A DNA stretch of 64,000 nt from Firmicutes bacterium ADurb.Bin080. GTDB lineage: Bacteria > Bacillota > Clostridia > Christensenellales > DTU072. Below the pieces are notes generated by a model. The model saw nothing but the letters and a program-made list of their open reading frames with translations. It searched no databases and had not been told where the DNA came from. The stretch spans positions 6,349 through 70,348 of the forward strand of contig MWEH01000095.1 of NCBI GenBank assembly GCA_002070965.1, given 5' to 3'. This document shows positions 12,151 through 30,994 of the stretch, one piece after another (position 1 is the first letter of the stretch; each line of letters opens with the position of its first letter). A program made the translations under genes and the position numbers.

Positions 12151-14298
12151 TTGGCAAAAAAGAATGACAATATAATGAATTCTGACAATCCTAACGAGTC
12201 CAAGAATGACAATATCTTAAATCCCAGTGTTTCAGACCCCGAGTCAGAAAGTCCAATTTTGGATAATCTTCCATCCGAGACCCAAACAGATATTTCTATT
12301 CAAGACACAAGCGAGGAACCCAATGTTCTCTCTGATGTCATTTCTAACGAACCTGCTGAGTCCGCTGAAGAAAGCGTTGATTCTGACACCGAAATACCTC
12401 CTCTTCTGGCAAAACCTGAAGAGCCTGCTGAGACTATTGAAGAAAGCGTTGATTCTGACTCCGAAATACCTCCTCTTCCGGCAAGACCTGAAGAGCCTGA
12501 GGTTTTTGTTGAGGGCAACTCTGAAGATGAATCATCCGAAATCTCTGAAATTGAAGGTGAGGCCCTTTCTGAAATTGAGCAGATAGAATATGAGCTTGAA
12601 AAACTTGAAAAAGAGATTGTACAGTCCGAAATAGATTCGGAAGGCGATTTCATTCCTGAGACAGAGGAAGAAAAACAAACAATGGCTGAAATTGAGCTTC
12701 TGGAAGTTGCTGCCAAAAAACAAACTAAAGAAGCAGATAAACTAACCAAGGAAATAATTCCTGCTCCAGAAGATGCAGATATGGTTGAAACTTACGTTCC
12801 AGAGTTTCAGAGAGAGCCTGGGACTCCTGAAAAACCCGCGGACGATGATGAGGAAGATCCTACACCAAAACCAGTAGAAGAAGAAAGTGAGGATTTACAA
12901 GCAGAGCTTGAAAGAATCTACGAAACTGGAGTTGGGACTGGGCTGGATGAATGGGATAGAGAAATTCTTCTCCCCGTTTTTGAGAACAGACTCAGAATGA
13001 CAAAAAATTCTACAAAGCTTTCTTACTCAAAACTAAAAAATCAAATTTTATCATTTAAGGGAATCTCCGCATCTTTCCAAGGACCCATCGAAAATTTCAG
13101 ATACAATAAAAAAATTGTTTTCAGATTCGCGATTAAAGATGATTCGGTTCAACTTTATTGTGCCCTTGACCCAGAGTCCATAGACAACAATGTATATCCG
13201 CACAAAAAGGCTAAAGGCGAGCACGCAAAGGCGACAGCGACAATACTTACTATAAACGATGAAAATTCTCTTAGAAATGCTGGGGAAATCATCACATTAG
13301 TTGCTGCAAAAATCGGAACTGCTGAAAAAGAACATCATGTTCCTGTAGCCTTCGCTGAAAGATACCCTATTAATCCCAACGGAGTCCTTTTTGGACAAGA
13401 AAGCAAACCACCCATCGATGGACAATATGATAACGATGATGACTATGCTCCGATATCCGGGGAAATAATAAACGGGATTATCGAAGCTAAGTTCGGAAAA
13501 TCCAAACTTCAGGAAAGGAAGGAGTTAAAGGGCAAGGAAGTTCTTGACGATTTGAGACAAACGGCAAACACAATTAAAGCTGCAGTAGCGCTCACAGAGC
13601 CCGTAGTATACTTCTTTGACGCGGCTTTAAACAAAGAAAGTTCTATTGAATATTTAAACATCCAACAGCTCTTGAACGATAAGTTTTTGGGGAAAATTGT
13701 TCCTCAGGTTTTCTTTGCAGTTGCTGAAGGAAGTGACAGAATTGAAAAATTTAATTTCCTATCTCTGGAATTTGCAGTAGAACAAGCTAATGCTTATCCA
13801 AGTACCCGATTTGTACTTGCATTAAGCTGCAGATTACTTATCAGGGATGAAGTCTTTGAAAGGCTGCTAAGAAACGCAAAAACCCTTAATGACAATTTGG
13901 TACTTGCGTTTGATTGTGCTCTTTTAGAATCACTTGGGGATATGGGTCTACAAAAAATTCGTAGGCTCAGAAACGAAGCAGGTGTTATGATTATGATAGA
14001 TAATTCAGAAAATGCAGGAATGCGTGTCTTGACAGAATATGATTTTGAATATATCAGATTTGACAGCAGATTCTACGCCGGAGACAATGCGAAACAACGG
14101 TCCCATCTTGAGATGATGACTGGATATGCAAGATCCCAAAATATCAAGACTACTTCCATCAACGTTCTTACTTTAAAAGAGGCCCAAATAATGGTTGAAA
14201 GAGGGGTCGATGTAATTCAAGGACCAGCCGCTTCAGAGCCAAAAAGAATAGCTACGCTGGCAATGAAAGGTGTTAAAAAACTTCCTCTTGGGAGGTAA
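12151..14298 (+). CDS. acidic-repeat protein with C-terminal degenerate EAL-like domain
   Basis: TTG start after AAAGGGG. The N-terminal ~260 aa are D/E/S/P-rich with a 24-aa tandem repeat. The C-terminal ~240 aa follow the EAL-domain motif order (EYL.., P..FF.VAE.., IMIDNSENAG for DDFGTGYS, IRFDSRFY for LKIDRSF, ..GVDVIQGPAASEP for G.D..QGY.F..P), but most catalytic residues are replaced. Confidence 0.6.
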   Translation: MAKKNDNIMNSDNPNESKNDNILNPSVSDPESESPILDNLPSETQTDISIQDTSEEPNVLSDVISNEPAESAEESVDSDTEIPPLLAKPEEPAETIEESVDSDSEIPPLPARPEEPEVFVEGNSEDESSEISEIEGEALSEIEQIEYELEKLEKEIVQSEIDSEGDFIPETEEEKQTMAEIELLEVAAKKQTKEADKLTKEIIPAPEDADMVETYVPEFQREPGTPEKPADDDEEDPTPKPVEEESEDLQAELERIYETGVGTGLDEWDREILLPVFENRLRMTKNSTKLSYSKLKNQILSFKGISASFQGPIENFRYNKKIVFRFAIKDDSVQLYCALDPESIDNNVYPHKKAKGEHAKATATILTINDENSLRNAGEIITLVAAKIGTAEKEHHVPVAFAERYPINPNGVLFGQESKPPIDGQYDNDDDYAPISGEIINGIIEAKFGKSKLQERKELKGKEVLDDLRQTANTIKAAVALTEPVVYFFDAALNKESSIEYLNIQQLLNDKFLGKIVPQVFFAVAEGSDRIEKFNFLSLEFAVEQANAYPSTRFVLALSCRLLIRDEVFERLLRNAKTLNDNLVLAFDCALLESLGDMGLQKIRRLRNEAGVMIMIDNSENAGMRVLTEYDFEYIRFDSRFYAGDNAKQRSHLEMMTGYARSQNIKTTSINVLTLKEAQIMVERGVDVIQGPAASEPKRIATLAMKGVKKLPLGR
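12352..12495 (+). repeat. in-frame 72-bp coding tandem repeat (2 copies)
   Basis: PAESAEESVDSDTEIPPLLAKPEE / PAETIEESVDSDSEIPPLPARPEE. The nucleotide copies at 12352-12423 and 12424-12495 are nearly identical. Confidence 0.95.
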
Positions 14299-14466
14299 GT
14301 ATTCACCTATCCTTCATGTAAATGCTTTTGTAGATTCGCGTAAAAAGAAGTATAATTATATAAAGGAAAACTGAAAAAATTAACGAACTGAAAGGCGAAA
14401 TAATATTTAGAAAATTACTCTATTTTTACTGAAAATTAACCGTAAAAATAGATAAACGGAGATTAA

Positions 14467-15495
14467 ATGGCAAAAAAAGACAATGTGGATAAAGAGGTAT
14501 TATCACCTCAGGAGCAGATGAAATCACGTCCAGCTCCGGATGCCCCGGTGGATAACAAGGGCACTTTAATCCGCAAAGAAAAACCAAAGAAGATGAAAGC
14601 TCGTGGAAAGAACATGGTGGAAAATACCGATGAACTATCCGGGAAATATGAGTATGTCATAAAGCACAAAAAAGTTGAAAAGGAAACAAAGAATCGTAGG
14701 TTCATAAGAATACTTCTAATCTTCCTTCTTTCCCTTCTAATCCTTGGGGGCGGACTATGGGGTGTCACCGCATTTATTGAGTACAACAATTTCCGTGTTG
14801 TTGTCGATAGACCCGGTCAAAATATTTTTGCAATCAGCCCTGCAAGAAGCCTTCAAAATACAACTGAAATTTATAACATCGATGGCCCAAGATATATGGA
14901 TAACATAACCCTTATGGGAATGGAAGACGTGATACTAGAAATCGAGGATTCTGATGGAGCAACCTCGAGGGACAACTTGATCGCTGCAACTTTTTATCTA
15001 ACAAATATCACCGATGATTCTAGGCGTTATAGAGAGGTTGTAGACATATCTGAAACTTCTCAAGGGCTCGAAGAAGCGATCCGAATTATGCTAATAAAGA
15101 GCACTTATAATGCTGACGGAACAGTCAAAAAACGTGTATGCAATGTATACGCTGCACCTCATTCTTTTGATGAGTTTGGGGTCCCAATACCCGAAGCTGT
15201 GGTTCCCTTGGCAACACCTTCTTATTACACCGGAGATGAGCTCAGACAGCTCGAAGGGCTTGGTCTTTCGGACTCAGAAGACTCGGAAGAATGGATGTCA
15301 ATACCCTTCCTTTCCTCAACTTTAGTCCTCGATCAAAACGGAGATTCTGAGGGCACTCCCGAAGACTACATTATCCCCCCAGGAGGCAAAGTGAAGTATA
15401 CACTTTTAATCTGGCTAGAGGGAAATGACAAGGACTGCATTGACGATAAACTCGGGGGCAGAATGAAACTTTCCTTGACCTTTAGCGAGGGTTAA
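14467..15495 (+). CDS. membrane-anchored TasA/TapA-like protein (paralog of the two downstream fibre-subunit candidates)
   Basis: ~75-aa basic cytoplasmic N-terminus, then a TM segment ending GGGLWGVTAFIEYNN (resembles SipW-type GGGTFAYFxD). The C-terminus YTLLIWLEGNDKDCIDDKLGGRMKLSLTFSEG shares the W-L-E-G...(L/V)xFx motif with ORFs 16616 and 17619. Confidence 0.5.
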   Translation: MAKKDNVDKEVLSPQEQMKSRPAPDAPVDNKGTLIRKEKPKKMKARGKNMVENTDELSGKYEYVIKHKKVEKETKNRRFIRILLIFLLSLLILGGGLWGVTAFIEYNNFRVVVDRPGQNIFAISPARSLQNTTEIYNIDGPRYMDNITLMGMEDVILEIEDSDGATSRDNLIAATFYLTNITDDSRRYREVVDISETSQGLEEAIRIMLIKSTYNADGTVKKRVCNVYAAPHSFDEFGVPIPEAVVPLATPSYYTGDELRQLEGLGLSDSEDSEEWMSIPFLSSTLVLDQNGDSEGTPEDYIIPPGGKVKYTLLIWLEGNDKDCIDDKLGGRMKLSLTFSEG

Positions 15496-15499
15496 AATT

Positions 15500-15600
15500 C
15501 TCAAAAAATCCCATTTTTTAAATTTTTAATATTTTCTGCACATCCACTCAAAAAATCCCATTTTAAATTTTTATATTTTCTGCACATTCACTCAAAAAAT
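15500..15600. repeat. about 2.3 near-identical tandem copies (44-47 bp) just downstream of ORF 14467..15495
   Basis: ctcaaaaaatcccattttttaaatttttaatattttctgcacatcca / ctcaaaaaatcccattttaaatttttatattttctgcacattca / ctcaaaaaatt... Confidence 0.9.
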
Positions 15601-16204
15601 TATTGCCAAACAATCCCAAATTTTTTTATTTCACTCAATAATCTCGGATTGCTTTTTTAACTATCTAAACAACAAATCCTTTTCGGTTTTTTCGCAAGCT
15701 TCTCCTTCATCCCCAATCTCCAATAATATTCTTTTTCCTCTTCCACTTTTACTTTCCCTCTCCCGGACCATAACAATAAAAAAGTAAGCACAATTTGTAT
15801 ATAATGATTTAAAAGAAACTAAAATCTTTTTCAATAGAGTTCAAAATTAGCTTAAGAAAATTTTCTGATCCATCATTCTTAGCCTCTTAAGTTAATACAA
15901 ATTAACAATAGAAACATCCTGCTCAATCAATTCCCGTAGAAACCTTTTTGCTTAGCACATAAGGTCAAGACAGTTAACCGATCCTATTGTTTCCACCCCT
16001 AACAGCCCCTACAAAAATACTTATTTTGGTAATTTGTCGTGAGATAAAAAAATAGTAAATGAACACTCAAGTTTCACAATTTCTTAATTGACTTAATCGC
16101 GCACGTGTATAATAATAAGACAGGAATTGAATTTTTAGCTTGAAATTTGTCACTTTACTCAACTAAACTAAAAAAGCTTAAAAATCAAAAACACGCGTAC
16201 ACTG

Positions 16205-16233
16205 TTGTGTCGAATATGTATACTTGTTATAAT
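16205..16233 (+). promoter_or_regulatory. sigma-70/SigA-type promoter candidate for the fibre-subunit operon
   Basis: TTGTGT (16205-16210), 17-nt spacer, then TATAAT (16228-16233), preceded by TGn (extended -10). It would give a ~375-nt leader before the ATG at 16616. Confidence 0.55.
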
Positions 16234-16410
16234 TACATTATGAAAGGAGCCCTTCACTTACACTCAATTTTTTCGGATGAGGCTCAAAAATCAAAAAATC
16301 TTTCTTACGAAGTGTTGCAAAACCCACACTTTCTTACATTGATTACAATACTTTTTTGTGGGATTCCCTATCAAATACTACTGCTGAGGCAGAGTATAAA
16401 AAATCCATAA

Positions 16411-16551
16411 CGGAGGTTGGCTATGGTAAACAAATCTTTTCGGTTAAGACGGTCAACTAGTAACGTTTCGTTACTGGTTCGGTTCTGTGAGGTAGATAGC
16501 TAGTACCGCACTTACCTAATTGGTAAACGTAACGTACATGGCCAACCACCG
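16411..16551 (+). promoter_or_regulatory. structured 5' leader element (candidate riboswitch or cis-regulatory RNA, class unknown)
   Basis: Closing helix CGG-A-GGTTGGCTATG (16411-16425) pairs with CATGGCCAACC-A-CCG (16537-16551): 14 bp with one G.U and one A.A. It encloses hairpins CTAGTAACG-TTT-CGTTACTGG (16457-16477) and GTGAGGTA..TACCGCAC (16487-16511). Confidence 0.45.
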
Positions 16552-16615
16552 AATATAACCGCGAAACAGATCGCACAAAACAAAATTAAAAAATTCTAAT
16601 TTATAGGAGAAAAAA

Positions 16616-17467
16616 ATGAAAACAAAATCACTTTTTATATCAACAATCGCAATGGTAGTATTGCTAGTTGTTGCTCTCGCCACCGGCACCTTTGCATGGT
16701 ACACCTCACAAAGCACTGCTACTGGTGAGTCTGCAGCTCTTTCAACTGCGGCTTCTACTTCTGCTACAATTGCTCTTGCCTGGTCTCCATCAGGAACAGG
16801 CAGTCAAGTTACTTTCGGTGTCTCCAATGTTGACCCAATGATACCGACTACGGAACTTGCAACTTATGACACGGGAAGTGGGGGAGTTCCTCCTGTGTTC
16901 GAAAGCGGTGTGCTTGGTGTTACTGGTGGGGGACAAGAGTACTTTAGGACAGTCAGCAGCCCTGCCTCTCCTTGGAAACAAAAGGATTCAACTAATGCTT
17001 TCAACACACTTTATCTCAGAAACTTAAACCCTAATGCTGGGGCAAAAATTACTACCTCTGTGACTCTTCCGACCACAGGAAACAGTGGGGAAACCATAGT
17101 TGATAACAATGACATACTTCGTGTCGCTATATACTCTGTCGTGGGAGACGCAACCGAGCATACTCTTATTGGCGTATGGGGCGTTGCTTCTGCTGGAGAC
17201 GCTTACTATGGTGATCTTACAGCATATCCTGGAACTGGCGAGTACACTGACTATTTAGTCGGAACATTCATGAGTGGTGCTTCCACACTCAGTTTAACAG
17301 GTTCCGGAGCCGCCAGTGTTACTTTTGATGTTCCAAAAAGCACGAATGCAGTTATTGAAATATACGCATGGCTTGAAGGAACAGTCCTTGACAACGATAG
17401 ATCTGCTTTAAGCACTACCGGAGATGAAGTAACTTTTAATGTCACTTTCTCTGCTGCAGAAATTTAA
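16616..17467 (+). CDS. secreted TasA-like fibre-subunit candidate with SipW-dependent-type signal peptide
   Basis: N-terminus MKTKSLFISTIAMVVLLVVALATGTFAWYTSQS matches the SipW-cognate pattern (h-region + G-T-F/Y-A-x-F/Y-S/T). S/T/G/A-rich mature part. C-terminal IEIYAWLEGTVLDND...VTFNVTFSA motif. Good RBS (AGGAG). Confidence 0.65.
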   Translation: MKTKSLFISTIAMVVLLVVALATGTFAWYTSQSTATGESAALSTAASTSATIALAWSPSGTGSQVTFGVSNVDPMIPTTELATYDTGSGGVPPVFESGVLGVTGGGQEYFRTVSSPASPWKQKDSTNAFNTLYLRNLNPNAGAKITTSVTLPTTGNSGETIVDNNDILRVAIYSVVGDATEHTLIGVWGVASAGDAYYGDLTAYPGTGEYTDYLVGTFMSGASTLSLTGSGAASVTFDVPKSTNAVIEIYAWLEGTVLDNDRSALSTTGDEVTFNVTFSAAEI

Positions 17468-17507
17468 TTCTACAATCATAGATACTTTCCGTCTTAATTA
17501 ACCGAAC

Positions 17508-17537
17508 CACCCCAGCGGGCAAAAGCCCGCTGGGGTG
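17508..17537 (+). terminator. strong intercistronic hairpin (attenuator or partial terminator) between the two fibre-subunit genes
   Basis: Perfect 13-bp stem CACCCCAGCGGGC / GCCCGCTGGGGTG with an AAAA loop. It is followed by AGAAAAGATTTT, so there is no immediate T-run. Confidence 0.6.
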
Positions 17538-17618
17538 AGAAAAGATTTTCACCGGCTAGAATAAAGTGAAGAGCACACTTCATTGTGGGATAGGGGGAAG
17601 TCAAAGAAGGTAAGATTA

Positions 17619-18470
17619 ATGTCAATAACCAATCCGAAATTTTCATTAAGATCATCGTCTCAGTTGTTTTTCACGACTATAGCGATGATTTTGTTGTTAG
17701 TAGTGGGACTTTCCACTGCTACTTTTGCATGGTTTTCGGCAAATAGCAGAGTGGGATCTGGGTCAATTATTTTTGAAGCTAGAAACACCGCCTCAGCAAG
17801 CATTTATTTGGGCTGGGTTCCAGATTCTGTAGAAAGTAGTATAACTTTCTCTGCCCCAGAGGAAATAGACCCTATGGTGCCCTCTTTTGCACCTATCAAT
17901 ACTACGAGAGTAGATGACTTTACGAATAATTTTTATACTGCTAGCATTAGTCCTGAAGGAGACAATGGTGAACCTTCTGTTTTCAATGAAAATGGATTTA
18001 GGGTCCTGCCGTATAAAGCATACCAAGGCCCCCCAGATTCGGTTGAGACCCAGGATTACTTTTATGTAATAAATGGAAGCGCTGAACCAACTATTGTCGT
18101 AATGCAGGTAACTTTCGAAGGAGATAACGCGGCATTACTTAGAGTTGGGCTGTTTGTGAATGAGACATATGTTGGAACGATAAGACCCTATGATGTAGAC
18201 CCAATGGCAACGACTCATTGCGGACCGATTGTTGAGGGTGGTAACCCATATAGCGATGGCTTTATTGAGATTCCAACAGATATGGCTTTATCATTTGGCT
18301 TGGGAGGAAAAGTTGATGGCTCAACCGATCATTTTGTGAGGGTTGAGGTTGTTTGCTGGTATGATGGAGTTTGGCTTGATGAAGATTTTATGGATGGAAA
18401 TGCGGAAATAGCGTTGGTATTTAGAGGACAAAAGGGTTTTAGTAATCCAAATGTTGTAACTAATCCGTAA
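17619..18470 (+). CDS. second TasA-like protein with SipW-dependent-type signal peptide
   Basis: Start set at the ATG at 17619 (MSITNPKF..). Signal region TTIAMILLLVVGLSTATFAWFSANS. C-terminal VEVVCWYDGVWLDEDFMDGNAEIALVFRG motif is paralogous to ORF 16616. Confidence 0.6.
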   Translation: MSITNPKFSLRSSSQLFFTTIAMILLLVVGLSTATFAWFSANSRVGSGSIIFEARNTASASIYLGWVPDSVESSITFSAPEEIDPMVPSFAPINTTRVDDFTNNFYTASISPEGDNGEPSVFNENGFRVLPYKAYQGPPDSVETQDYFYVINGSAEPTIVVMQVTFEGDNAALLRVGLFVNETYVGTIRPYDVDPMATTHCGPIVEGGNPYSDGFIEIPTDMALSFGLGGKVDGSTDHFVRVEVVCWYDGVWLDEDFMDGNAEIALVFRGQKGFSNPNVVTNP

Positions 18471-18674
18471 AGTTTAGTTTCTTTTTCATAAATAATTTTG
18501 CCTTTTTCCAGTTATTATTATAAAAAAGTTGCTATTTACTTCTTTATTTAGCGCCTGCGCGCGCATAAAGTTAATTTAGTATTGTGTTTTGTTTGTGAAT
18601 ATAGTATATTAATCATATAAATGCATCGCTTACTCTATTGATATTAGCGAATGCTTGTGGAAAGGAGAACTTTA

Positions 18675-19439
18675 ATGGGGATACAAAAAAAAGCTAAAGT
18701 ATCCAAGCTCAATGAAAAGCAGAAAAAGATCCTTAACATCATAATAACTGTTGCTCAAGTAGTTTTGATCCTAGTAGCTGTAGTCGCTTCAATTATCATT
18801 CTTGTCAATCCAACCGGTGCTACAATTAGAGAAAAGGGGATAACTCTGATGCCGGTTCTATCCGACTCAATGGATGGAGATCAAGAAGACAGTTTCAAAG
18901 AGGGAGATCTGTTGATTGTTCATGCTCCTGATGCCAAAAAGTATGACCCTACAAAATTGGTTGTAGGTGATATCATTACTTTTGAGTGGACCGTAGCCGG
19001 ACAAAAGATATATAACACTCACAGAATTGTCGATGTGGATGTTTTTGGAGATTCTGTAGTATATACTGCTAGAGGTGATAATCCTAATATCTTAGCAACT
19101 GATACACAGGTTGTTCCTGCAAACAAAGTACTTGGAATTTGTACTGGAAGCTTGAAAGGGGTTGGAAAAACTATAAGTTTCTTACAAACACCTTTGTATT
19201 TCTTATTGGTTATATTACTCCCCTTAGCTTTGTTGTTCATATATAACATCGTGTTGTTTGTAAAAATGATCATGGAACAAAAGTTGGCAAAAGTTGGTGC
19301 ACTTGGCGGAAGCGAAGAAGATGAAGCCACAAGAAAACAAAGAATAATCGATGAATATCTTGCCTCACAACAAAAGCAGGAAGAAAATAAAGTAGAAGTA
19401 GAAGAGACTGAGGCAGAAGAGCCCGGGGACGAGGAATAA
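18675..19439 (+). CDS. SipW-type (ER/archaeal-type) signal peptidase I
   Basis: S26 boxes LSDSMDG (Ser nucleophile), NTHRIVDV (His) and ARGDNPNILATD. N-terminal and C-terminal TM segments and an acidic tail. Start set at the ATG at 18675 after AAAGGAG. Confidence 0.8.
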   Translation: MGIQKKAKVSKLNEKQKKILNIIITVAQVVLILVAVVASIIILVNPTGATIREKGITLMPVLSDSMDGDQEDSFKEGDLLIVHAPDAKKYDPTKLVVGDIITFEWTVAGQKIYNTHRIVDVDVFGDSVVYTARGDNPNILATDTQVVPANKVLGICTGSLKGVGKTISFLQTPLYFLLVILLPLALLFIYNIVLFVKMIMEQKLAKVGALGGSEEDEATRKQRIIDEYLASQQKQEENKVEVEETEAEEPGDEE

Positions 19440-19470
19440 CAATTAGGTCCGGGCGTACAAAAAGATAATA

Positions 19471-19494
19471 ACGCCCTGTACGCAGGGCGTTTTA
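19471..19494 (+). terminator. rho-independent terminator after the first sipW-like gene
   Basis: ACGCCCTG / CAGGGCGT stem with a TACG loop, followed by TTTT. Confidence 0.75.
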
Positions 19495-19558
19495 TGTTAA
19501 AAGGCTATTTGGCTTTTAACAAAATAATAAAAGCTAATTGTAAGGGAAAAATTATTTC

Positions 19559-21118
19559 ATGTTTGGAAATTTCTTAAAAGACTTTTTAGGTATATTCTTT
19601 GGCGGAATATTAGGAATATTTTGGTCTAGCAAAGCATCTGATAATTATGGGGGAATTTTTGGAGCCCTATTCCAGATGTTTAATTTCCCTGCGTATATAG
19701 AAATATTTAAAAATTATGGGGATAAGTTGTCGGCTGGCCTTTGGGTTGCTGCAGCATTTTGCGTGCTACTGGTTCTTGCTGCATTGGTGGCAATTGTCTG
19801 GGTTGTTCTCTTCTTTGGTAAAAGACTTTGGAAGAAAATTGTTGGAGACAAGGTTTTAAATCAGGACTTAATGGATGAAATTGATAATCTTAAGAGAGAA
19901 TTGATTAAGGTTACCAGAGAAAAAGATAGGATTTTGGGATTGAAAATCGCATATCAGGGATATGATGTGACAGAGGGAGAAGAAGGCGAAAGTACCTCGG
20001 GGGCGAAGAAAGAAGGCGAAAGCAGATTCTATAAATTAACTGAAGTTGATTCTTTCTATTCAGATCCCGAATACGTAGCAAGAGAATATGACATTTCTTG
20101 GAATTTGGAAGAACTCTGCGACAGATTTAGAAATTATGCTGCAAATAATCCGGACAGACCTTGGCGTCATCTATATTATGAGCCAAAAATTATTAGATTA
20201 TTCTTTGCATCACTTGCAACTACTCGTCTGGTTATTCTTCAGGGTATATCTGGTACAGGTAAGACATCCCTCCCTGAATGTATGGGACACTTTTTCAAGA
20301 ATGATACTACGATTGCTTCAGTTCAGCCCTCTTGGCGTGATAGAACAGAGCTATTTGGATACTTTAACGAGTTTACAAAGAGGTTTAACGAAACAGAAGT
20401 TTTGAGAGCATTGTATGAATCAACATATAATGAGGACATTCACTTGGTCGTCTTGGACGAAATGAACATAGCCCGTGTCGAATACTACTTCGCAGAAATG
20501 TTATCCATCTTGGAAATGCCTTCAAGAGATCAGTGGATAGTTGACTTGGTTCCTAGCGGTTGGCCTTCCGACCCTAAACACGTTTTAAAAGGTCGTTTTA
20601 GACTTCCTGAGAATGTTTGGTATTGCGGAACAGCAAACAACGACGACTCCACCTTTGCTATATCAGATAAGGTTTATGATAGAGGTATGCCAATAAATAT
20701 CAACAGTAAAGCTGCAGCGTTTGAAGCTCCACTAACTAGTGGCCTTCCAGTTAATTACAAGTATCTTGAAAGTTTATATAAACTTGCCATGGAAAAACAT
20801 AGAGTTTCGGATGAAAACTTGCAGAAGTTTGAGGAAATGGACAATTATGTTATCGAACATTTCAGATTGGCTTTTGGTAACCGTATTGTTAAGCAGCTGA
20901 GAGAATTCGTTCCCGTTTATGTTGCTTGTGGCGGAACAGAAATTGATGGACTTGATTACGTCCTTTGTAATAAAATCCTACGCAAGTTTGAATCCTTAAA
21001 CTTGGCATACATCCGTGACGAGGTCGATGACTACATCCTTTATTTGGATAATCAATTCGGCGAAGAAAATATGGGTGAATGTAAAGATTATCTCCGCCGC
21101 TTGAAGAAGTTGTTCTAG
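19559..21118 (+). CDS. membrane-anchored McrB-family (AAA_5-like) AAA+ NTPase
   Basis: Hydrophobic N-terminus (FLGIFFGGILGIFW.. and LWVAAAFCVLLVLAALVAIVWVVLFFG), then a short coiled segment. Walker A GISGTGKTS, SVQPSWRDRTELFGYFN, Walker B and McrB-like signature VVLDEMNIARVEYYFAEMLSILE, and GTANNDDSTF. Confidence 0.75.
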   Translation: MFGNFLKDFLGIFFGGILGIFWSSKASDNYGGIFGALFQMFNFPAYIEIFKNYGDKLSAGLWVAAAFCVLLVLAALVAIVWVVLFFGKRLWKKIVGDKVLNQDLMDEIDNLKRELIKVTREKDRILGLKIAYQGYDVTEGEEGESTSGAKKEGESRFYKLTEVDSFYSDPEYVAREYDISWNLEELCDRFRNYAANNPDRPWRHLYYEPKIIRLFFASLATTRLVILQGISGTGKTSLPECMGHFFKNDTTIASVQPSWRDRTELFGYFNEFTKRFNETEVLRALYESTYNEDIHLVVLDEMNIARVEYYFAEMLSILEMPSRDQWIVDLVPSGWPSDPKHVLKGRFRLPENVWYCGTANNDDSTFAISDKVYDRGMPININSKAAAFEAPLTSGLPVNYKYLESLYKLAMEKHRVSDENLQKFEEMDNYVIEHFRLAFGNRIVKQLREFVPVYVACGGTEIDGLDYVLCNKILRKFESLNLAYIRDEVDDYILYLDNQFGEENMGECKDYLRRLKKLF

Positions 21119-21182
21119 TCAAACTGAATATATTTCAGCTGATGTATAAATAAGTGTATTTTGGGAGTTAACGTAGGTATTT

Positions 21183-23168
21183 ATGGCTCAATCACAGTAT
21201 GATGAGATTATTTTCCAGATAAATAATCTCCTTAAACAGGAGAAGATTTATCCATTGTACATGGGGTCAATTGCCGAAGGCAAAAACGACTATAAAATCA
21301 GCCAGGTTTACACAAAAAAGAACTATGATGACAGCTGGATAACTACCCTTGAAGAGTGTATTGTTCCTCTAGACACCATAGTAAGAAACCCCAGAAAGTT
21401 CATTATTATCGAAGAAGATATAGTCGATGTATCTTTAGCTAGATCCATTTCTATTGAATCAGTCAAGCATTTGGCTCAACATACCAACTTGATAGCAGCC
21501 GTTAAGAAAGATGGCTCAATTATCCCTTCAAAAATTCTTAATACCAGCAAGGAAGAGAGCTTTGAGATATATGAAAACCGTTTTATATACACCCTCTTAT
21601 TAAAGGTTAACGAGTTCGTTGAAAGAAGAACCGGGATTGTAAAAAAAGCATTGATGCAAGCTGGGGCACTTGGGGTCGACATCAAGTCAAATTTTAAAAT
21701 TAATGACTTCAGCGTAGACTTCACAATGAGCAATTCAGCAAACTTCCCTTTCGAGGCAGCCTTCAAGAAACAAGGAGACGAACACTCTGACCTTGAAAGA
21801 ATTGCATATATTACTCGTATTTACCAGGACTTCTTGTCCTCTCCATTTGCAAAAGAGCTAAAAAACTGCGCACTTGTTCGTCCCCCTATTACTCGTACTA
21901 ACGTAATTCTAAAGGATCCAAACTTTAAAAAAGCCCTAACTTTATGGCAGTTCGTTGAAAGTGCGGAAAAAATGGACTTCCGAATAGATACAGTAACTGA
22001 GGCGACTGATTTAAACGCCACCCTTACAGAAAAATATCGTGGTATCGTTTTCTTAAATACTGTTCTTCTTCAATCTATTGCCGAAACCAGACAAGAAAAT
22101 GAATCCTTAGAAAAAACGCTTAAACAAGACCAGGTTTTAGCAGATGATTATGTTACGAAAAATATAGATGACTTTGTCCCGGATGATTTCCCGCAGCTTA
22201 AGATGGATCTGAACGAAGTCAGACGAATATATTATCGTGTTCCAGGGCAAAAAACCCTTAGTTTAACAGAAATTGCAAAAGTTAATGCAGCTTTAGACAG
22301 GGTATACAGACAATATAGAATTAACAAAGCCAGAGATGACAGTATCACCAAAAAGAGATTAATTGCTAAACAGCTTGAAGAAGAAGCTCAAGCTAAACGA
22401 CTAGCTCTTAGGGAAGCTAGAGACATAGAAAGAGCAAAGAAACAAGAGGAAGCAAGGAGACGACTTGAACAAAGAAAGCTTGAAGCCGAAAGAAGAGCTG
22501 CACTTGAACGTGCTGAACAAGAGAGATTAGAAGCCGAAAGAAGAGCTGAAGAAGAGAGAATTCTTTTAGAGGCAGAAAAAGTACGTCTTGAGCAAGAAAG
22601 AAAGCGTCAAGAAGAAGAAAAACGAATTGAAATAGAAAAACAAGCTGCCGAAGAAGCGCATAAACTGAAAATTATTGAAGAACAAAAGATGGCCGCGCGT
22701 ATCCAGCAGGAAATGGAAGAATATAAAGCACGTCTTGAATCTGAAGAAAAGAGAATTGAGCTTGAACTGATTGAGAGACAGGAAAACTATTGGAAGAAGC
22801 AAAAAGAACTTCAGTTAAGATTACAAGTTGAAGATGATAAGACAAAGATATTTGAAAAGGAAACCTTCTATTTCTCGAAAGTTAAAAAAGATGAGAAGAA
22901 CAAAATGACAAAGCTTGAAATGCTTCGCAATACCCTCAGAAATGCGATGATCGTGGAGCATTACCAGGAAATTGAGAGCATATTAGAGTCTGCAAAAGAA
23001 CATTATTCCGAAGAACAATTAAAGGAAATCCGCGCCGAAATAAAAGCCACTGAAAAAGCTGAAGAAAAGAAAAGAAAAAAGAAAGAAAATAAAGGGCGCA
23101 AAAACGGACTTCAAAAGCTGACTGGGTTGTTTTCAAAGAAGGATAAAGATATAATAGAGAATAAATAA
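21183..23168 (+). CDS. McrC-N-terminal-like (DUF2357-like) protein fused to a long E/K/R-rich coiled coil; no nuclease domain recognised
   Basis: The N-terminal ~330 aa contain EESFEIYENRFIYTLLLKVNEFVERR (the ENRF-type motif of McrC-like partners). aa ~385-560 are almost pure E/K/R/A/L/Q heptad-like sequence (LEAERRAALERAEQERLEAERRAEEERILLEAEKVRLEQERKRQEEEKR..). Basic K-rich tail. Confidence 0.5.
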   Translation: MAQSQYDEIIFQINNLLKQEKIYPLYMGSIAEGKNDYKISQVYTKKNYDDSWITTLEECIVPLDTIVRNPRKFIIIEEDIVDVSLARSISIESVKHLAQHTNLIAAVKKDGSIIPSKILNTSKEESFEIYENRFIYTLLLKVNEFVERRTGIVKKALMQAGALGVDIKSNFKINDFSVDFTMSNSANFPFEAAFKKQGDEHSDLERIAYITRIYQDFLSSPFAKELKNCALVRPPITRTNVILKDPNFKKALTLWQFVESAEKMDFRIDTVTEATDLNATLTEKYRGIVFLNTVLLQSIAETRQENESLEKTLKQDQVLADDYVTKNIDDFVPDDFPQLKMDLNEVRRIYYRVPGQKTLSLTEIAKVNAALDRVYRQYRINKARDDSITKKRLIAKQLEEEAQAKRLALREARDIERAKKQEEARRRLEQRKLEAERRAALERAEQERLEAERRAEEERILLEAEKVRLEQERKRQEEEKRIEIEKQAAEEAHKLKIIEEQKMAARIQQEMEEYKARLESEEKRIELELIERQENYWKKQKELQLRLQVEDDKTKIFEKETFYFSKVKKDEKNKMTKLEMLRNTLRNAMIVEHYQEIESILESAKEHYSEEQLKEIRAEIKATEKAEEKKRKKKENKGRKNGLQKLTGLFSKKDKDIIENK

Positions 23169-23207
23169 TCTCTTATTATTTCCTGTTCTTTTGGGAGAGA
23201 TCTCTTA

Positions 23208-23948
23208 ATGATTGAATATAAATCGAAAGATTCTATTTCTAAACAAAAAAATCCAAAAAAGGGCGTAAAACTCGCGATAAATATCGCTACTTGGGTAGTG
23301 TTTATCATAATTTTTCTTTTAGTTTTTTCCGTACTTATTCAAAGTATAATGGGAGTTACTCCAAACCTTTTTGGCTACAGGTTTTATTTTGTACTTACTT
23401 CCAGTATGTCTCCCGAACTAAACCCTGGTGATGTTATTTTAAGTAAGTTATATAATGATGAAAAGAATATACCTGAACTAAAAGTCGGGGATGTGGTCAC
23501 TTACATAATTCCGGAGGGACAACCTAGAGCCGGATACCCTAATACTCATAAAATTATTACAGCTCCTTATGAAGACGAAGGGAAAACATATATAGTAACT
23601 AAGGGAGTTAATAACGTTATAGCCGATGCCCCCACTCCAGTAGAAAATGTGGAAGCTGTAATGGTACGCAAGTCTTCTTTTATGTCAGTATTGTATGGCT
23701 GGTTTATCGGAGGGAATACAGTGCTGATTATTCTGTTTATTGTCCCCTTCCTATTCATCATCGGATCTTTGATCTACCGATTGGTAGTTACTCTGAAATC
23801 AAAATCTACTCAACCCGTTCCTCCTGTCGAAGATGAGGATTACAAAAAGAAAGTAATAGAGGATTACTTGAAAAATACTGAATCAAAAAAGAAAGAGGAT
23901 CCGGATAATGAGTTGCCGCCTTTATCAGAGGATGAAAAAGAAGATTAG
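23208..23948 (+). CDS. second SipW-type signal peptidase I
   Basis: S26 boxes LTSSMSPEL, NTHKIITA and TKGVNNVIADAP. N- and C-terminal TM segments and an acidic tail. It lies 39 nt downstream of the coiled-coil gene with no terminator between them. Confidence 0.8.
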   Translation: MIEYKSKDSISKQKNPKKGVKLAINIATWVVFIIIFLLVFSVLIQSIMGVTPNLFGYRFYFVLTSSMSPELNPGDVILSKLYNDEKNIPELKVGDVVTYIIPEGQPRAGYPNTHKIITAPYEDEGKTYIVTKGVNNVIADAPTPVENVEAVMVRKSSFMSVLYGWFIGGNTVLIILFIVPFLFIIGSLIYRLVVTLKSKSTQPVPPVEDEDYKKKVIEDYLKNTESKKKEDPDNELPPLSEDEKED

Positions 23949-24090
23949 TTTTTATTTTTCTCTCGAAAAGACATATTCATAAGCCTAAAAATTGTTCGAA
24001 AAATGATCTTTTATATGGAGTATAAAATGTTTTGTTTTATGCTCCGTTTTTTTGTTATATAATCTATACATAATAAATAGGAGTATTTAT

Positions 24091-25230
24091 ATGAAAGTTG
24101 TTATTGCACCGGATAGTTTTAAAGGAACAATGAAGGCCTCAGAAGTGGCTGATATCATTGAAAAAGGGGTATTAGATGTCTTCCCAAATGCTAATATTTC
24201 AAAGATTCCCTTTTCTGATGGAGGGGAAGGAAGCGCTGAGTGCTTTCACTCCGCTATTGGTGGGGAATTAATTAATGTAAGGGTTAAAGATCCACTTGGG
24301 AGGATAGTTAATGCTCACTACTTGTACAAAGATGGACTTGCTATTATTGAGTCAGCTCAGGCTTGCGGTCTTCCACTACTTAATGAAGACGAGAAGAACC
24401 CTTTAGTAACTACAACTTATGGTGTGGGCGAATTAATATCGTTTGCACTCGACAAGGGAGCCCAGAAGATCGTTCTAACCCTTGGTGGAAGCTCAACTAA
24501 TGATGGCGGAGCTGGAATGGCTGCAGCTCTTGGAGTTAAATTCATTAATAAATCAGGCATTAGCTTTGTCCCCGTTGGAGGAACCTTAAATGAAATAAAC
24601 TCCGTCGATATGACAAGTATTGATAAAAGAATATTTAGAACTGAATTTATAGGTATGTGCGATGTAAAAAACACAGTTTGTGGGGAATTTGGGGCAAGCG
24701 CAGTATATGCCCCGCAAAAAGGTGCTTCTCCAGCAGATGTCGAGGAACTAGAAAATGGATTATGTCATCTTACAGAAATTTTAAATAGCATGAACAATAT
24801 AGACTACTTTTCTTCTGAAGGTGGAGGCGCAGCCGGAGGATTAGGCCTTGCGGTTCTTGCATTTTTAAAAGGAAAACTCGTAAGTGGAATTCAACTAATG
24901 ATGGAAATAGCCGAGTTTGATAGAAAAACTGCTGATGCAAACCTTCTTATTACTGGAGAAGGAAGGCTTGATAGACAAAGCTTTATGGGAAAAGTAATCG
25001 ATGGGATGTCTCAAAAAGCCATTACTCACCAAATCCCACTAATAATTATTGCCGGATCTGTTACTTCAGAAGTTACCCCTGATATATTAAAAGAACATGG
25101 GGTAATTATCGCGGAAAGCACTGATCTTACCGGAAAACCCTTTAAAGAGATTAGACACAGAGCAAAACAAGACCTTGCGCTTGCTTCAGTCAGAGTAATG
25201 CAAAAATACAAAGAAATGATTGAAGAATAA
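24091..25230 (+). CDS. glycerate kinase
   Basis: MKVVIAPDSFKGT.. N-terminus and LLITGEGRLD.QS..GK motif typical of GlxK/GarK. Start at the ATG at 24091 after AGGAG. Confidence 0.9.
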   Translation: MKVVIAPDSFKGTMKASEVADIIEKGVLDVFPNANISKIPFSDGGEGSAECFHSAIGGELINVRVKDPLGRIVNAHYLYKDGLAIIESAQACGLPLLNEDEKNPLVTTTYGVGELISFALDKGAQKIVLTLGGSSTNDGGAGMAAALGVKFINKSGISFVPVGGTLNEINSVDMTSIDKRIFRTEFIGMCDVKNTVCGEFGASAVYAPQKGASPADVEELENGLCHLTEILNSMNNIDYFSSEGGGAAGGLGLAVLAFLKGKLVSGIQLMMEIAEFDRKTADANLLITGEGRLDRQSFMGKVIDGMSQKAITHQIPLIIIAGSVTSEVTPDILKEHGVIIAESTDLTGKPFKEIRHRAKQDLALASVRVMQKYKEMIEE

Positions 25231-28000: not shown

Positions 28001-28756
28001 TCAATATATACTTTTCATATAAGTTAAACTCTTTCTAATGCTCTTATATGGGTTGGGGGATAAGTCTAATTCTATAACAGCATTTTCTACATTAGCAGCC
28101 TCAGCTTCTCCCATAATATCTTTAAAATCAAGCGTTCCTAATCCTATAGCACGAAAAACGGGTACTCCAAAAATTTTCGAGTAATCCTTAAGGTGAAGGG
28201 TGTTAATTCTGCCTGATAACTTTTTAATATAATCGTTTGGATCGTAACCGCCAACTTTGATCCAAAAGGTGTCCGGAATAAACTGAACTTCTTTTTGGGT
28301 TTCCTCAATCATAACATCGTATATTGTTTTTTCTCCGAGTTTTTTAAACTCAAAATTATGGTTATGGTATGCAATGGTCATCCCATATGGTTTAAGGTTT
28401 TCAGATACAATATTTAATAGCTCAATGAATTTTTTAATACCATCATTACTTCCACGATACTCTCCTGGCATCATTCCTATTCCCATGTTTTTACAGTTGA
28501 AATTTAAATGTTCTTCTGCAAGCCTTGGAAGGTCGTTTTTTATTCTTTCTACCGAGGAATGTGTTATGCATATTGGGAGCTCATTATCTTTTGATATCTT
28601 TCCAAGCTCAACGCTATCAATATCACACATATGAGATATCTGGACAACCTCAGCTCCCATTGATTTTACCTTTTGAAAAACACCCGGAACATCTTCAGGT
28701 TTTTTCAAATAGTCTCTTAGAGAGAACAGTTGGACTCCTACTTTTATTTTTCCCAT
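28001..28756 (-). CDS. sugar phosphate isomerase/epimerase (xylose-isomerase-like TIM barrel)
   Basis: AP-endonuclease-2/TIM barrel family pattern (..YHNH..EF.., LHLKD..). Paired with a Gfo/Idh/MocA gene. Confidence 0.75.
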   Translation of the reverse strand: MGKIKVGVQLFSLRDYLKKPEDVPGVFQKVKSMGAEVVQISHMCDIDSVELGKISKDNELPICITHSSVERIKNDLPRLAEEHLNFNCKNMGIGMMPGEYRGSNDGIKKFIELLNIVSENLKPYGMTIAYHNHNFEFKKLGEKTIYDVMIEETQKEVQFIPDTFWIKVGGYDPNDYIKKLSGRINTLHLKDYSKIFGVPVFRAIGLGTLDFKDIMGEAEAANVENAVIELDLSPNPYKSIRKSLTYMKSIY

Positions 28757-28834
28757 GATATTACCTCAATTCTTTATTTATTATTTATAGAATCTCAAAC
28801 AATTGAATAGACTGAGTTTGAAAAGGTCAGAATA

Positions 28835-30001
28835 CTAGGCCTTCTTATTGTATACTTTTTCCTCTGATTTTCTCTTTTCCAGCTCATTTATGAACTGATC
28901 CTCGTCTATTGGAAGGGTGATTTCCTTTCCTTGCCAACTTGATTGATACACTGCATTTGATAGAGTTAGTCCATTAATCCCGTCAAGACCGGGAGCTATA
29001 AGTTTTTCTCCAAACAGAACAGATTTTGAAAAGTTTCGGATAATATTTATGTGTTGCCCTATTAGTCCCATTCTAACAGCATTTGACAACGTGGATATCC
29101 TCTTTGTTTTCTTTGTATAAGGAATAATAGGCATAAATTTCTTATTATTCTTGTTGAATTCGCTTTCCTTGGTCTTAAGTTTTATAAAAGTAAACTTCTC
29201 AGAGAGCAGTCCTTTCCATTCAACGATAATTTGTCCGCCATCACCGGATATCTCTAATCTGTTGGTTCCAGGAGAATCATGAGTGCTTGTTACAAAGACT
29301 CCGCTTCCCCCGTCTTCGTATTCTGTATAAAATGTTACATCGTTCTCGACATTAATGTTTCTTTCCACTCCGACTTTCGCAAATCCATAAACTTTCTTGG
29401 GCATCCCGGCAAGCCATTGGAAAAGATCCAGTTGGTGAGGGCACTGATTAATTAGGACACCTCCGCCTTCTCCTTCCCATGTTCCTCTCCATCCACCTTG
29501 ATCATAATATGCTTGTGGACGATACCAATTGGTTATAACCCAATTAATTCTCTTTATCTTCCCTAATTGACCGCTTTCAATGATCTTTTTTGCCTCACGG
29601 TACATCGGATCAGTTCTTTGGTTATACATTATTCCAAAGGTAAGATCTTTTTTCTCTTTTGCTAGTTCATTCAGTTCTTTTACGGCTTTCGTAAAAACTC
29701 CTGCTGGTTTTTCTATAAGCACATGCTTACCTGCTTTAAGCGCTTTAATACCATATTCGGGGTGGAAATAGTGAGGGGTCGCTACTATTACTGCATCCAC
29801 ATCAGAACAGGAAATCAAATCATCAGCGTTTGAGAATATTTTTACATTTTTTAAATTCTTCTCTGCCCAACTTCTTCTCTCTTCTGAAATATCAGCAACA
29901 GCTACCAGAACAGAATTTTTATCCATGCCCTTGTTAATTTTCTTTGCATGTGAGTGTCCCATTTTTCCAATACCAATTATACCGTATCTTAATTTTGCCA
30001 T
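28835..30001 (-). CDS. Gfo/Idh/MocA family oxidoreductase
   Basis: N-terminal GIIGIGKMG Rossmann motif, EKP motif (VLIEKPAG), and C-terminal alpha/beta domain. Confidence 0.85.
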   Translation of the reverse strand: MAKLRYGIIGIGKMGHSHAKKINKGMDKNSVLVAVADISEERRSWAEKNLKNVKIFSNADDLISCSDVDAVIVATPHYFHPEYGIKALKAGKHVLIEKPAGVFTKAVKELNELAKEKKDLTFGIMYNQRTDPMYREAKKIIESGQLGKIKRINWVITNWYRPQAYYDQGGWRGTWEGEGGGVLINQCPHQLDLFQWLAGMPKKVYGFAKVGVERNINVENDVTFYTEYEDGGSGVFVTSTHDSPGTNRLEISGDGGQIIVEWKGLLSEKFTFIKLKTKESEFNKNNKKFMPIIPYTKKTKRISTLSNAVRMGLIGQHINIIRNFSKSVLFGEKLIAPGLDGINGLTLSNAVYQSSWQGKEITLPIDEDQFINELEKRKSEEKVYNKKA

Positions 30002-30056
30002 CTTAATCCTCCGTATTATTTGATTAGGGTTAACGATAAAAATATAACCCTGTTAA

Positions 30057-30983
30057 TTAATCCTTGTTCATTCCTACTTTATCCATTAACGCATCCAGCT
30101 GGCTATATTGCCAAACAAAAACATCCTTTCTGGATACTTTTTGCATGCTTTTTATATTCATGGTTTTGTCTACATACTTAAAAACCCTGTAACTATTCTT
30201 GATTGCCAGACTAAAAAGAGGGCAAAGATAAAAAGCCTTCTTCAAAAGTGCATATTTCCAGGTATGGGGTTCCATTGTTAAAAAGCCGTTATATTCCCTT
30301 TCTCTAAGGTCTTTAAGAATGTCTTCAATTCTGCCTTGTCCAAGTCCTAGTGGAACTTCAACTCCATCAAGGCAATCTTTCATATGATAATATACTGTAT
30401 AATCCCTAGTTTTTAAATATGCGTCGTATGGATCCACATTGCATTGTATGTAATTAGAAGCATCATAACATAGCTTTAAATTGGGGTGATTTACACCTTC
30501 ATATATTTCAATTGCCCTTTCAGGGACATCCCCGTAAATTTTCTTTTCATTTTCATGGATAAGAATTACATCTGTCCCCTCAACTTTTTCAAGAAATCCT
30601 TTCATCTTTCTGATAACCTCGGGGGTGTATCCTGCATAATTATCTCTTTGGTCCACAAAGAAAGAAAATACTCGTATATATTTGCATTCCATTGCCTGAG
30701 CAATTTTTACTAATGTTTCCAACTTCTTCAGCTGTTCCTTGTATGCATCTTCATTGTATAACCCAATTTTTCCGATTGGTGAACCTATACTAGAAAACTT
30801 TATTCCCTCTTTGTCAAGCACCGGCTTAACCTTATCCATAAATTCTTCATATGAATAATCCGCTATACTCTTTCCATTCACGCTTCTTGGGCACATATAC
30901 TTCATACCGAGTTCTTTACATATTTCTATTTGTAAAGACAAATCCGAAGAGTACTCATCTGTAAATCCACTAATTCTAACCAT
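30057..30983 (-). CDS. sugar phosphate isomerase/epimerase (TIM barrel)
   Basis: Same family pattern (..IHENE.., YHMKD..). Second member in the operon. Confidence 0.75.
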   Translation of the reverse strand: MVRISGFTDEYSSDLSLQIEICKELGMKYMCPRSVNGKSIADYSYEEFMDKVKPVLDKEGIKFSSIGSPIGKIGLYNEDAYKEQLKKLETLVKIAQAMECKYIRVFSFFVDQRDNYAGYTPEVIRKMKGFLEKVEGTDVILIHENEKKIYGDVPERAIEIYEGVNHPNLKLCYDASNYIQCNVDPYDAYLKTRDYTVYYHMKDCLDGVEVPLGLGQGRIEDILKDLREREYNGFLTMEPHTWKYALLKKAFYLCPLFSLAIKNSYRVFKYVDKTMNIKSMQKVSRKDVFVWQYSQLDALMDKVGMNKD

Positions 30984-30994
30984 TTTTTACCTCC

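Follow-up and report, generated by a model that had tools for sequence, protein, structure and literature searches.

What does an engine of the McrBC type, the textbook GTP-driven restriction engine, do in a branch that has neither a DNA reader nor a detectable nuclease, carries a membrane anchor and is fixed in a putative operon for secreted fibres? This question is raised by a gene pair in a 64,000-nucleotide stretch of Firmicutes bacterium ADurb.Bin080 (assembly GCA_002070965.1, contig MWEH01000095.1, positions 6,349 to 70,348 of the forward strand), hereafter the window, whose own numbering is used throughout. The pair consists of an McrB-like AAA+ nucleoside triphosphatase (NTPase), encoded by the open reading frame (ORF) that starts at 19559, and of its McrC-like partner, ORF 21183. 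An earlier note on this DNA had proposed a membrane-tethered McrB-type engine with a DUF2357 partner that carries a helical stalk and no detected nuclease, and our analysis bears out this architecture. We consider it rather probable that the pair is the engine or gate of SipW-dependent fibre assembly and not a restriction system. The features of the two proteins are as follows.

19559-21118, plus strand: McrB-like AAA+ NTPase of 519 amino acids (aa), from motifs, McrB alignment and AlphaFold model
19733-19819, plus strand: transmembrane (TM) helix of the AAA+ protein, residues ~59-87, from hydropathy and the Hessa scale
20243-20269, plus strand: Walker A motif GISGTGKTS of the AAA+ protein, from alignment
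20444-20467, plus strand: Walker B motif LVVLDEMN (McrB-type DExN) of the AAA+ protein, from alignment
20636-20647, plus strand: signature motif N360-N-D-D363 of the AAA+ protein, an NxD(D/E) variant of McrB NxxD, from alignment
21183-23168, plus strand: McrC-like partner of 661 aa with a DUF2357 match, no TM helix and no detected nuclease
21342-21983, plus strand: DUF2357-type core of the partner, residues 54-267, from Pfam, hhalign and invariant columns
22350-22862, plus strand: E/K/R-rich helical stalk of the partner, residues 390-560, from composition and heptad analysis
23031-23168, plus strand: Lys/Arg-rich C-terminal end of the partner, read from the sequence

The AAA+ protein and its McrC-like partner

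The AAA+ protein is a membrane-tethered McrB-type NTPase with intact nucleotide-binding motifs and an ATPase that is predicted to be cytoplasmic. Indeed, all four motifs that the earlier note quoted as McrB signatures were found in it, namely GISGTGKTS (residues 229-237), SVQPSWRDRTELFGYFN (254-270), VVLDEMNIARVEYYFAEMLSILE (297-319) and GTANNDDS (357-364). The Walker A motif is invariant in 46 homologues and pairs with GPPGVGKT of E. coli McrB, the Walker B motif pairs with IIDEINRAN of McrB and its D300, E301 and N303 are invariant in the family, and the signature N360-N-D362-D363 is invariant across the 46 homologues. Without any gap, GTANNDDST can be paired with GTANHDETT of CoCoNuT-like CnuB proteins and with GLMNTADRS of E. 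coli McrB; the same alignment sets D363 opposite the Asp of the E. coli N-T-A-D, and calling the shortened motif a 'deletion' is a matter of interpretation. A conserved Arg is also common to the AAA+ protein and E. coli McrB. Among solved structures, the only significant match by sequence is E. coli McrB (6hz4, E=2e-4, residues 212-400), in an alignment that covers both Walker motifs (A and the DExN-type B) as well as the signature, and the Pfam AAA_5 score lies slightly under its cut-off. Foldseek, which had been suggested for both proteins, was informative for the AlphaFold model of the AAA+ protein (pLDDT 76.7, with 46 homologues as input), whose matches are AAA+ proteins (MCM, RavA, BrxL, dynein, McrB 6ut3 and NorQ); the model of the partner returned noise only.

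In the model, the AAA+ module (residues 158-519) is preceded by helices at 2-21, 33-40 and 43-54, a long helix at 59-94 and a helix at 102-132, and an acidic disordered linker (133-155) separates the last of these from the module. Residues 1-57 form aromatic and Gly-rich helices, and helix 102-132 has a heptad occupancy of 0.64-0.67. No DNA-binding domain was detected by Pfam, residues 1-157 being made up of hydrophobic helices, the TM helix, the coiled coil and the acidic linker, in agreement with the claim that the usual N-domain is replaced. The 'TM segments' that were claimed for this region are overstated in the plural. One clear TM helix stands at ~59-87, with a Kyte-Doolittle 19-residue score of 3.2 and a Hessa sum of -5.35 in the window protein and of -4.5 to -8 in all 46 homologues. 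The Gly/Phe-rich stretch 2-24 scores marginally (Kyte-Doolittle 1.2-1.3, Hessa sum +0.1 to +9); as a second TM helix it was rejected as unlikely on the Hessa-scale sums, and it looks more like an interfacial helix. Directly C-terminal of the TM helix lies the cluster KRLWKK, with a net charge of +4 on that side, and the predicted topology therefore places the N-terminus (~57 residues) outside and the coiled coil and ATPase in the cytoplasm. This N-segment, predicted to be external or interfacial, is conserved and would share its side of the membrane with the signal peptidase active sites and the subunit signal anchors described below.

The partner is deposited in databases as a hypothetical protein, and at full length it gives no match in Pfam or PADLOC. 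The missing full-length Pfam match is tentatively attributed to the HMMER bias filter acting on the charged tail. Residues 1-300 reach Pfam DUF2357 at 25.0 bits against a gathering cut-off of 23.3 (residues 63-153, including EIYENRF), so that the McrC/DUF2357-like N-terminal region reported earlier holds, and trimming of the tail still gives nothing in PADLOC. Among 20 diverse partner homologues, 13 match DUF2357 (best E=2e-14). The core conserved in 36 homologues covers residues ~45-260 and contains the invariant motifs Q-H-T, EES, YENR and TN...K...F...LW; the invariant residues are W52, E57, Q99-H100-T101, P115, E124-E125-S126, Y130-E131-N132-R133 and, further on, R206, P235, T239-N240, K244, F248 and L254. 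Past E131 the family has zero invariant acidic residues and K244, within I-L-K, is its only invariant Lys, which argues that the PD-(D/E)xK catalytic triad is absent. In addition, neither the partner nor 20 homologues match PF04411, PF10117, PD-(D/E)xK or any other nuclease family. The earlier note had likewise failed to see such a motif, and the search in orthologues that it proposed for a nuclease or other effector found none in the 20 partner homologues or in the conserved gene families of 80 related loci. Hydropathy indicates no TM helix in the partner, hhalign of its profile against E. coli McrC gives no match, and its N-terminal profile against PDB sequences returns nothing relevant (best EF-Tu, E=0.41). 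The most conserved stretch, residues 73-127, has a pLDDT below 50, which might fit a segment that folds only within the ring of a binding partner.

Beyond residue ~260, the partner homologues diverge into a variable E/K/R/A-rich helical tail, and the lengths of the complete ORFs of these partners lie between 142 and 1246 aa (median 725). Partners from uncultured Bacilli are ~370 aa long and have no charged helical tail (related loci L047:11559-12668, L048 and L080:10095-11225), so the stalk is not essential to the class. The charged coiled-coil tail described in the earlier note is real as regards its charge; in residues 390-490 the heptad pattern is weak, and this part resembles an ER/K single α-helix more than a coiled coil; residues 490-545 are more coiled-coil-like. 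The nucleotide repeat noticed in this tail is present twice, with positions one base away from those given, as a 19-nucleotide direct repeat at 22482-22500 and 22530-22548 that encodes the peptide EAERRA, where none is expected by chance.

Class membership and the conserved gene cluster

An NxD-motif McrB GTPase fused to an FtsB-homologous domain made of TM and coiled-coil helices was described by Bell et al. 2024 in eLife (PMC11090510), who introduced the name CoCoPALM for the class and reserved its treatment for 'a separate, forthcoming publication'. Their account, one paragraph without functional data, gives as features a shortened NxD that is usually followed by D or E, an adjacent DUF2357 McrC that usually carries a coiled coil, and genes of the signal peptidase family (PMC11090510). 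The window locus has the NxD motif, the TM and coiled-coil architecture, the DUF2357 partner and the signal peptidases, with two SipW-type genes flanking the pair, and nothing in it contradicts membership. By these predicted features it is a CoCoPALM-type system; since the class is already named, the locus is not new in kind, and the novelty that the earlier note gave to a non-restriction use of McrBC falls away. No further detail on CoCoPALM is given in the supplement of Bell et al., our literature search found no later paper using the name, and the sole co-mention of SipW and McrB that it returned is an E. coli strain genotype. Note that FtsB/DivIC homology of the N-domain was not detected (Pfam, E up to 10), the architecture alone being reproduced, and that the coiled coil of FtsB has the opposite orientation to the predicted cytoplasmic coiled coil of the AAA+ protein. 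What our analysis adds to the CoCoPALM description is the predicted single-TM, N-out topology, the (S/T)TAT(F/Y)AWF(S/T) signal, a 342-aa membrane protein, an EAL protein, the SipW tail motif and the loss of the partner tail in Bacilli.

The closest sequence relatives found for the window GTPase are CnuB proteins of CoCoNuT systems (33-37% identity), which share the N-x-D-(D/E) motif. The best two plasmid matches are on Deinococcus sp. AJ005 p96k (L081) and Polaromonas pPNAP01 (L082), where four same-strand genes end with an AAA ATPase of ~800 aa. On p96k, Pfam identifies the first gene as a UPF1-like helicase and the last as a DUF2357 protein; the last gene of pPNAP01 is annotated as hypothetical. 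Gene content and order correspond to the arrangement that Bell et al. describe for CoCoNuT (PMC11090510). The partner profile matches CnuC of Deinococcus p96k with a probability of 97.5% (E=6.5e-12) over 208 columns that include YENR and TN..K..P.F..A..LW, and CoCoNuT proteins have coiled-coil extensions, as at the window locus. The two differ in that the CoCoNuT locus has a UPF1-like helicase (L081), whereas the distinguishing parts of the window locus are a TM anchor, signal peptidases and secreted proteins. CoCoNuT loci carry predicted nucleases, are located on mobile elements and have a predicted defence role (PMC11090510); no HEPN or other nuclease gene and no CnuH helicase gene was found in 12151-23948 of the window. 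E. coli McrBC (6hz4, 6ut6, 7vsr) resembles the pair in its AAA+ core motifs and in its two genes with the activator gene downstream, and differs from it in that the pair has no DNA-binding N-domain and no detected PD-(D/E)xK nuclease. The GTPase domains are 23% identical, and the partner has no detectable similarity to E. coli McrC (PF10117).

The region 12151-23948 of the window holds eight genes, all on one strand, of which those around the pair are the following.

12151-14298, plus strand: EAL-domain protein of 715 aa, acidic and rich in repeats in its N-terminal half, with a divergent EAL domain at the C-terminus
14467-15495, plus strand: bitopic membrane protein of 342 aa, from hydropathy
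16616-17467, plus strand: pilin-like, TasA-class candidate subunit 1, secreted, with a signal anchor ending ...ATGTFAWYTS
17583-18470, plus strand: pilin-like candidate subunit 2, secreted, with a signal anchor ending ...STATFAWFSA
18651-19439, plus strand: SipW-type (archaeal/ER-type) signal peptidase I, copy 1, from NCBIfam SipW and TIGR02228
23208-23948, plus strand: SipW-type signal peptidase I, copy 2, above the TIGR02228 cut-off

A scan of one genome per GTDB species gave at least 588 confirmed relatives of the AAA+ protein. The neighbourhood was analysed for the best 80 of these loci, and genes were counted in those 37 that are flanked by 5 kb or more on each side, as listed below.

SipW-like peptidase near the pair: 37 of 37
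McrC-like partner: 37 of 37
342-aa membrane protein family: 35 of 37
BLAST-clusterable pilin-like proteins: 30 of 37
EAL protein, upstream: 27 of 37
two or more SipW copies: 19 of 37

The co-occurrence with sipW and TasA-like genes that the earlier note wanted examined is thus found for SipW in every fully flanked locus. According to the record labels, the carriers among the best 80 loci belong to Christensenellales, Oscillospirales (Acutalibacteraceae, Ruminococcus, Oscillospiraceae) and uncultured Bacilli, and identity to the window AAA+ protein is ~60-83% in Christensenellales, ~54-59% in Oscillospirales and ~53-54% in Bacilli. In the related loci, the AAA+ and partner genes are separated by a median of 41 nucleotides, and in the window the partner gene starts 64 nucleotides past the AAA+ gene. 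None of the gene families conserved in the 80 related loci is a nuclease, helicase, methyltransferase or mobile-element family. No full-length copy of the AAA+ protein was found in plasmid or phage collections; plasmid tblastn matches are partial, cover the GTPase domain only and have at most 40% identity.

The two pilin-like proteins (ORFs 16616 and 17583, ~290 aa) are paralogues of one BLAST cluster. The N-terminus of ORF 16616 scores 19.0 bits against TIGR04088 (SipW-dependent-type signal peptide), exactly the cut-off; one of its homologues scores 17.2 bits and the remaining homologues miss. A signal anchor ending in (S/T)TAT(F/Y)AWF(S/T) occurs in one to three ORFs per locus across 56 related loci, and one pilin-like homologue carries the Joint Genome Institute (JGI) name 'SipW-like signal peptide'. 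Cleavage is presumably after T-F-A, by analogy with TasA (GTWA↓AFND) and CalY (GTFA↓YFSD). The resemblance to Bacillus tapA-sipW-tasA and B. cereus sipW-calY lies in SipW beside secreted proteins with a T-(F/W)-A-x-F-(S/N)-like signal end. TasA polymerises by donor-strand assembly (PMC9674648, PMC9245690), and an extracellular fibre at the window locus is implied by analogy with archaeal bundling pili and TasA fibres. Among the closest database relatives, the pilin-like proteins drop to 30-45% identity, whereas the adjacent ATPase remains 75-99% identical (53-99% among the relatives listed). On these identities the ATPase is under strong purifying selection, in contrast to the hypervariable subunits, and the hypervariability fits a surface structure under diversifying selection. 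Many pilin-like relatives (P0241-P0357) lie on ~1-kb contigs, which suggests that assemblies break at these genes. Some clusters of Oscillospirales contain three or four extra T(F/Y)(A/S)W-motif proteins and secreted Ser/Thr-rich proteins of 1000-2650 aa, placed between the McrC-like gene and the second sipW (L026, L027, L035, L037, L039, L045, L051-L055); these are candidate minor subunits and adhesins.

By hydropathy, the 342-aa protein has a basic cytoplasmic N-tail of ~80 aa, a TM helix at 82-100 and an external domain of ~240 aa. Only over its last ~40 residues, with the motif W-x-EG-x-D-x-DC...G...L-x-F, does it resemble the pilin-like family (hhalign 92%, E=6e-7), and because of this C-terminal motif and the long cytoplasmic N-tail it is a candidate for the base subunit of the fibre or its membrane anchor. 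In the EAL protein, the EAL domain matches Pfam at E=1e-15 to 1e-16, and the extremely acidic N-terminal half contains near-tandem repeats ESVDSD(T/S)EIPPL..(K/R)PEEP. Read by eye, the catalytic motifs are largely gone (DDFG is replaced by IDNSENAG and EGVE is lost), and a phmmer search of the PDB with this region had no match at 1e-3. The protein is probably non-catalytic and may be a receptor of cyclic di-GMP (c-di-GMP) rather than a phosphodiesterase.

SipW copy 1 matches NCBIfam SipW at E=2e-16 and TIGR02228 at E=3e-12 (46.7 bits), both under the cut-offs, and copy 2 reaches 68.3 bits against the TIGR02228 cut-off of 51.85. Hydropathy gives two TM helices in each copy, and both paralogues have cytoplasmic tails of 40-100 residues. 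The tail of copy 1 is acidic and contains RKQRIIDEYLASQ (tail region 19300-19439), that of copy 2 contains KKKVIEDYLKN (tail region 23800-23948), and the SipW tail peptide of the cluster is EEIKRKAIEEYLASQ. Comparison of the homologues of loci L003-L080 revealed a motif of about EE(I/Q)K(R/K)KAIEEYLASQ, sometimes duplicated, in 38 of 83 SipW tails against 0.29 in shuffles, and this motif could be a docking site for a cytoplasmic partner. On a 99%-identical contig from another metagenome (L085:1185-1959), sipW copy 1 is called as two overlapping ORFs of 135 and 134 aa, which is either a frameshift variant or an assembly error.

Fibre assembly, defence, switch or restriction

According to the reading that we favour, the AAA+ protein would form a hexameric ring beneath the membrane, as McrB does, and the DUF2357 core of the partner would insert asymmetrically into this ring and stimulate GTP (or ATP) hydrolysis, as McrC does. 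The energy would not be spent on DNA; it would be relayed by way of the coiled coil, TM helix and short outer N-segment to the machinery that processes or polymerises the subunits, or, as an alternative output, the AAA+ engine would act on the conserved cytoplasmic tails of SipW. The AAA+ N-segment and the SipW tail motif are possible coupling points, the charged helix of the partner would serve as a spacer or stalk, and the degenerate EAL protein would provide a possible c-di-GMP input. In either case, the engine would drive or gate the assembly of the fibre or its extrusion through the cell wall. A stronger form of this reading, which we put forward tentatively and with less than even confidence, is that an McrBC-derived GTPase ring and plug is the true cytoplasmic motor of an unrecognised class of Gram-positive surface-fibre machine. 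Such a machine would be common among uncultured Clostridia and Bacilli of the gut and would belong neither with sortase or type IV pili nor with the motor-less TasA fibres. Nucleotide hydrolysis, relayed across the membrane, would drive cleavage-coupled polymerisation or extrusion of SipW-processed subunits, with the SipW tail motif as docking site and the degenerate EAL protein as c-di-GMP input. A preprint reports that, in C. perfringens, type IV pilus proteins are required for the passage of a SipW-dependent matrix protein through the cell wall (PMC11580942), so that energised export of SipW-dependent proteins has a precedent in Clostridia.

Several points weigh against fibre assembly as the role of the pair. 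Gene neighbourhood is the whole of what ties the predicted NTPase to the putative fibre, and the CoCoPALM class is known so far from sequences alone. The pilin-like ORFs and a 24-member profile show no TasA, Peptidase_M73 or camelysin similarity in Pfam or PDB sequences beyond the signal peptide. The hexamer, the binding of ring and plug and the nucleotide preference are carried over from McrBC of E. coli and Thermococcus. For partner residues 1-400, the AlphaFold model is weak (pLDDT 65.5; best Foldseek match in the PDB E=0.27); the case for a partner without nuclease comes from sequence conservation, and a relic fold is not addressed by so weak a model. Finally, TasA-type fibres of Bacillus (tapA-sipW-tasA) assemble outside the cell without an NTPase, and a motor is not obviously required. 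In this respect, known TasA operons have no NTPase, whereas the window cluster has two long-tailed peptidases and the McrBC-like pair.

A membrane-associated defence module was the second proposal of the earlier note. Such an anti-phage module would detect infection at the envelope, for example through the binding of phage to the fibres, and respond by abortive infection or exclusion, the fibre genes being its neighbours as the source of the phage receptor; we regard it as improbable. The AAA+ domain does match the PADLOC candidate-defence model PDC-M26A (E=3.7e-38), as does the GTPase of Deinococcus p96k, the closest relatives outside the class are the plasmid CoCoNuT-like systems with their predicted defence role (PMC11090510), and hypervariable pilin-like genes are what would be expected of phage receptors. 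However, the cluster conserves no effector (nuclease, HEPN, pore-forming or NAD-degrading), the partner lacks a PADLOC match and the ATPase is unusually conserved for a defence gene. Moreover, gene order is fixed across orders, with an identity that falls roughly stepwise from Christensenellales to Oscillospirales and Bacilli, the flanks are housekeeping genes, and plasmids and phages yielded no full-length copy. A conventional McrBC-type restriction system, to which the proximity of sipW would be incidental, would account for McrB-like motifs and a DUF2357 partner in tandem, yet we give it hardly any credence: a TM helix and a coiled coil replace the DNA-binding N-domain, the partner has no PD-(D/E)xK motif or family match and no detected similarity to E. 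coli McrC, and the SipW linkage is fixed in all fully flanked loci.

Second in our ranking is a regulatory switch, in which the pair would bind or unfold the SipW tails or the N-tail of the 342-aa protein and thereby toggle cleavage and fibre production by c-di-GMP through the EAL protein. The conserved motif in the SipW tails and the EAL-domain protein conserved upstream speak for it. AAA+ rings commonly remodel or thread protein tails, and the C-terminal tail of B. subtilis SipW reportedly (Terra et al. 2012) has a regulatory role that is independent of peptidase activity. On the other hand, the EAL protein is missing from 10 of the 37 fully flanked loci, the interaction with the SipW tail is itself a prediction, and no threading of polypeptides is known for McrB-type rings, which McrC plugs; the switch appears fairly unlikely to us, though less so than a defence module.

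If the pair does act in fibre assembly, a defence motor would have been exapted for building cell-surface structures, or the reverse. As a true motor, it would be the first McrBC-family engine shown to act on something other than nucleic acid, a job that would surprise specialists. The carriers belong to lineages that abound in guts and digesters and about whose structures for adhesion and biofilm formation next to nothing is known, and the cluster offers a handle on their surface fibres. Direct tests of the class can start from its predicted topology, its signal motif, the motif in the SipW tails and the accessory genes.

Non-coding elements and flanking genes

Two hairpins were found by pattern scan in the cluster.

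19470-19491, plus strand: GC-rich hairpin in the interval between sipW1 and the AAA+ gene
24015-24047, plus strand: terminator-like hairpin and T-run, 3' of sipW2

The hairpin at 19470-19491 has a perfect 9-bp stem, AACGCCCTG-TACG-CAGGGCGTT, is terminator-like in both strand directions and represents a possible partial terminator or mRNA-processing signal; that at 24015-24047 is likely the end of the operon. Upstream of the first pilin-like gene, 1.1 kb (15496-16615) is without a long ORF and may be a long leader or regulatory region. An Rfam scan (E up to 1) of 11000-24500, which includes this interval, found no match, neither to a c-di-GMP riboswitch nor to any other element.

The surroundings of the cluster in the window are housekeeping and metabolic genes and not a defence island. 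One flank holds genes for formate-tetrahydrofolate ligase, RlmL, a cation-efflux protein and an M20 peptidase, and the other holds genes for glycerate kinase, a metalloenzyme-superfamily protein that is probably a phosphopentomutase, a PNP-family phosphorylase and DeoC. Adjoining the deoC, phosphorylase and metalloenzyme-family genes, GFO_IDH_MocA oxidoreductase genes alternate on the minus strand (28001-32140) with AP_endonuc_2 (xylose-isomerase-like TIM barrel) genes, in what looks like a sugar or inositol-type catabolic cluster that is unrelated to the AAA+/partner pair.

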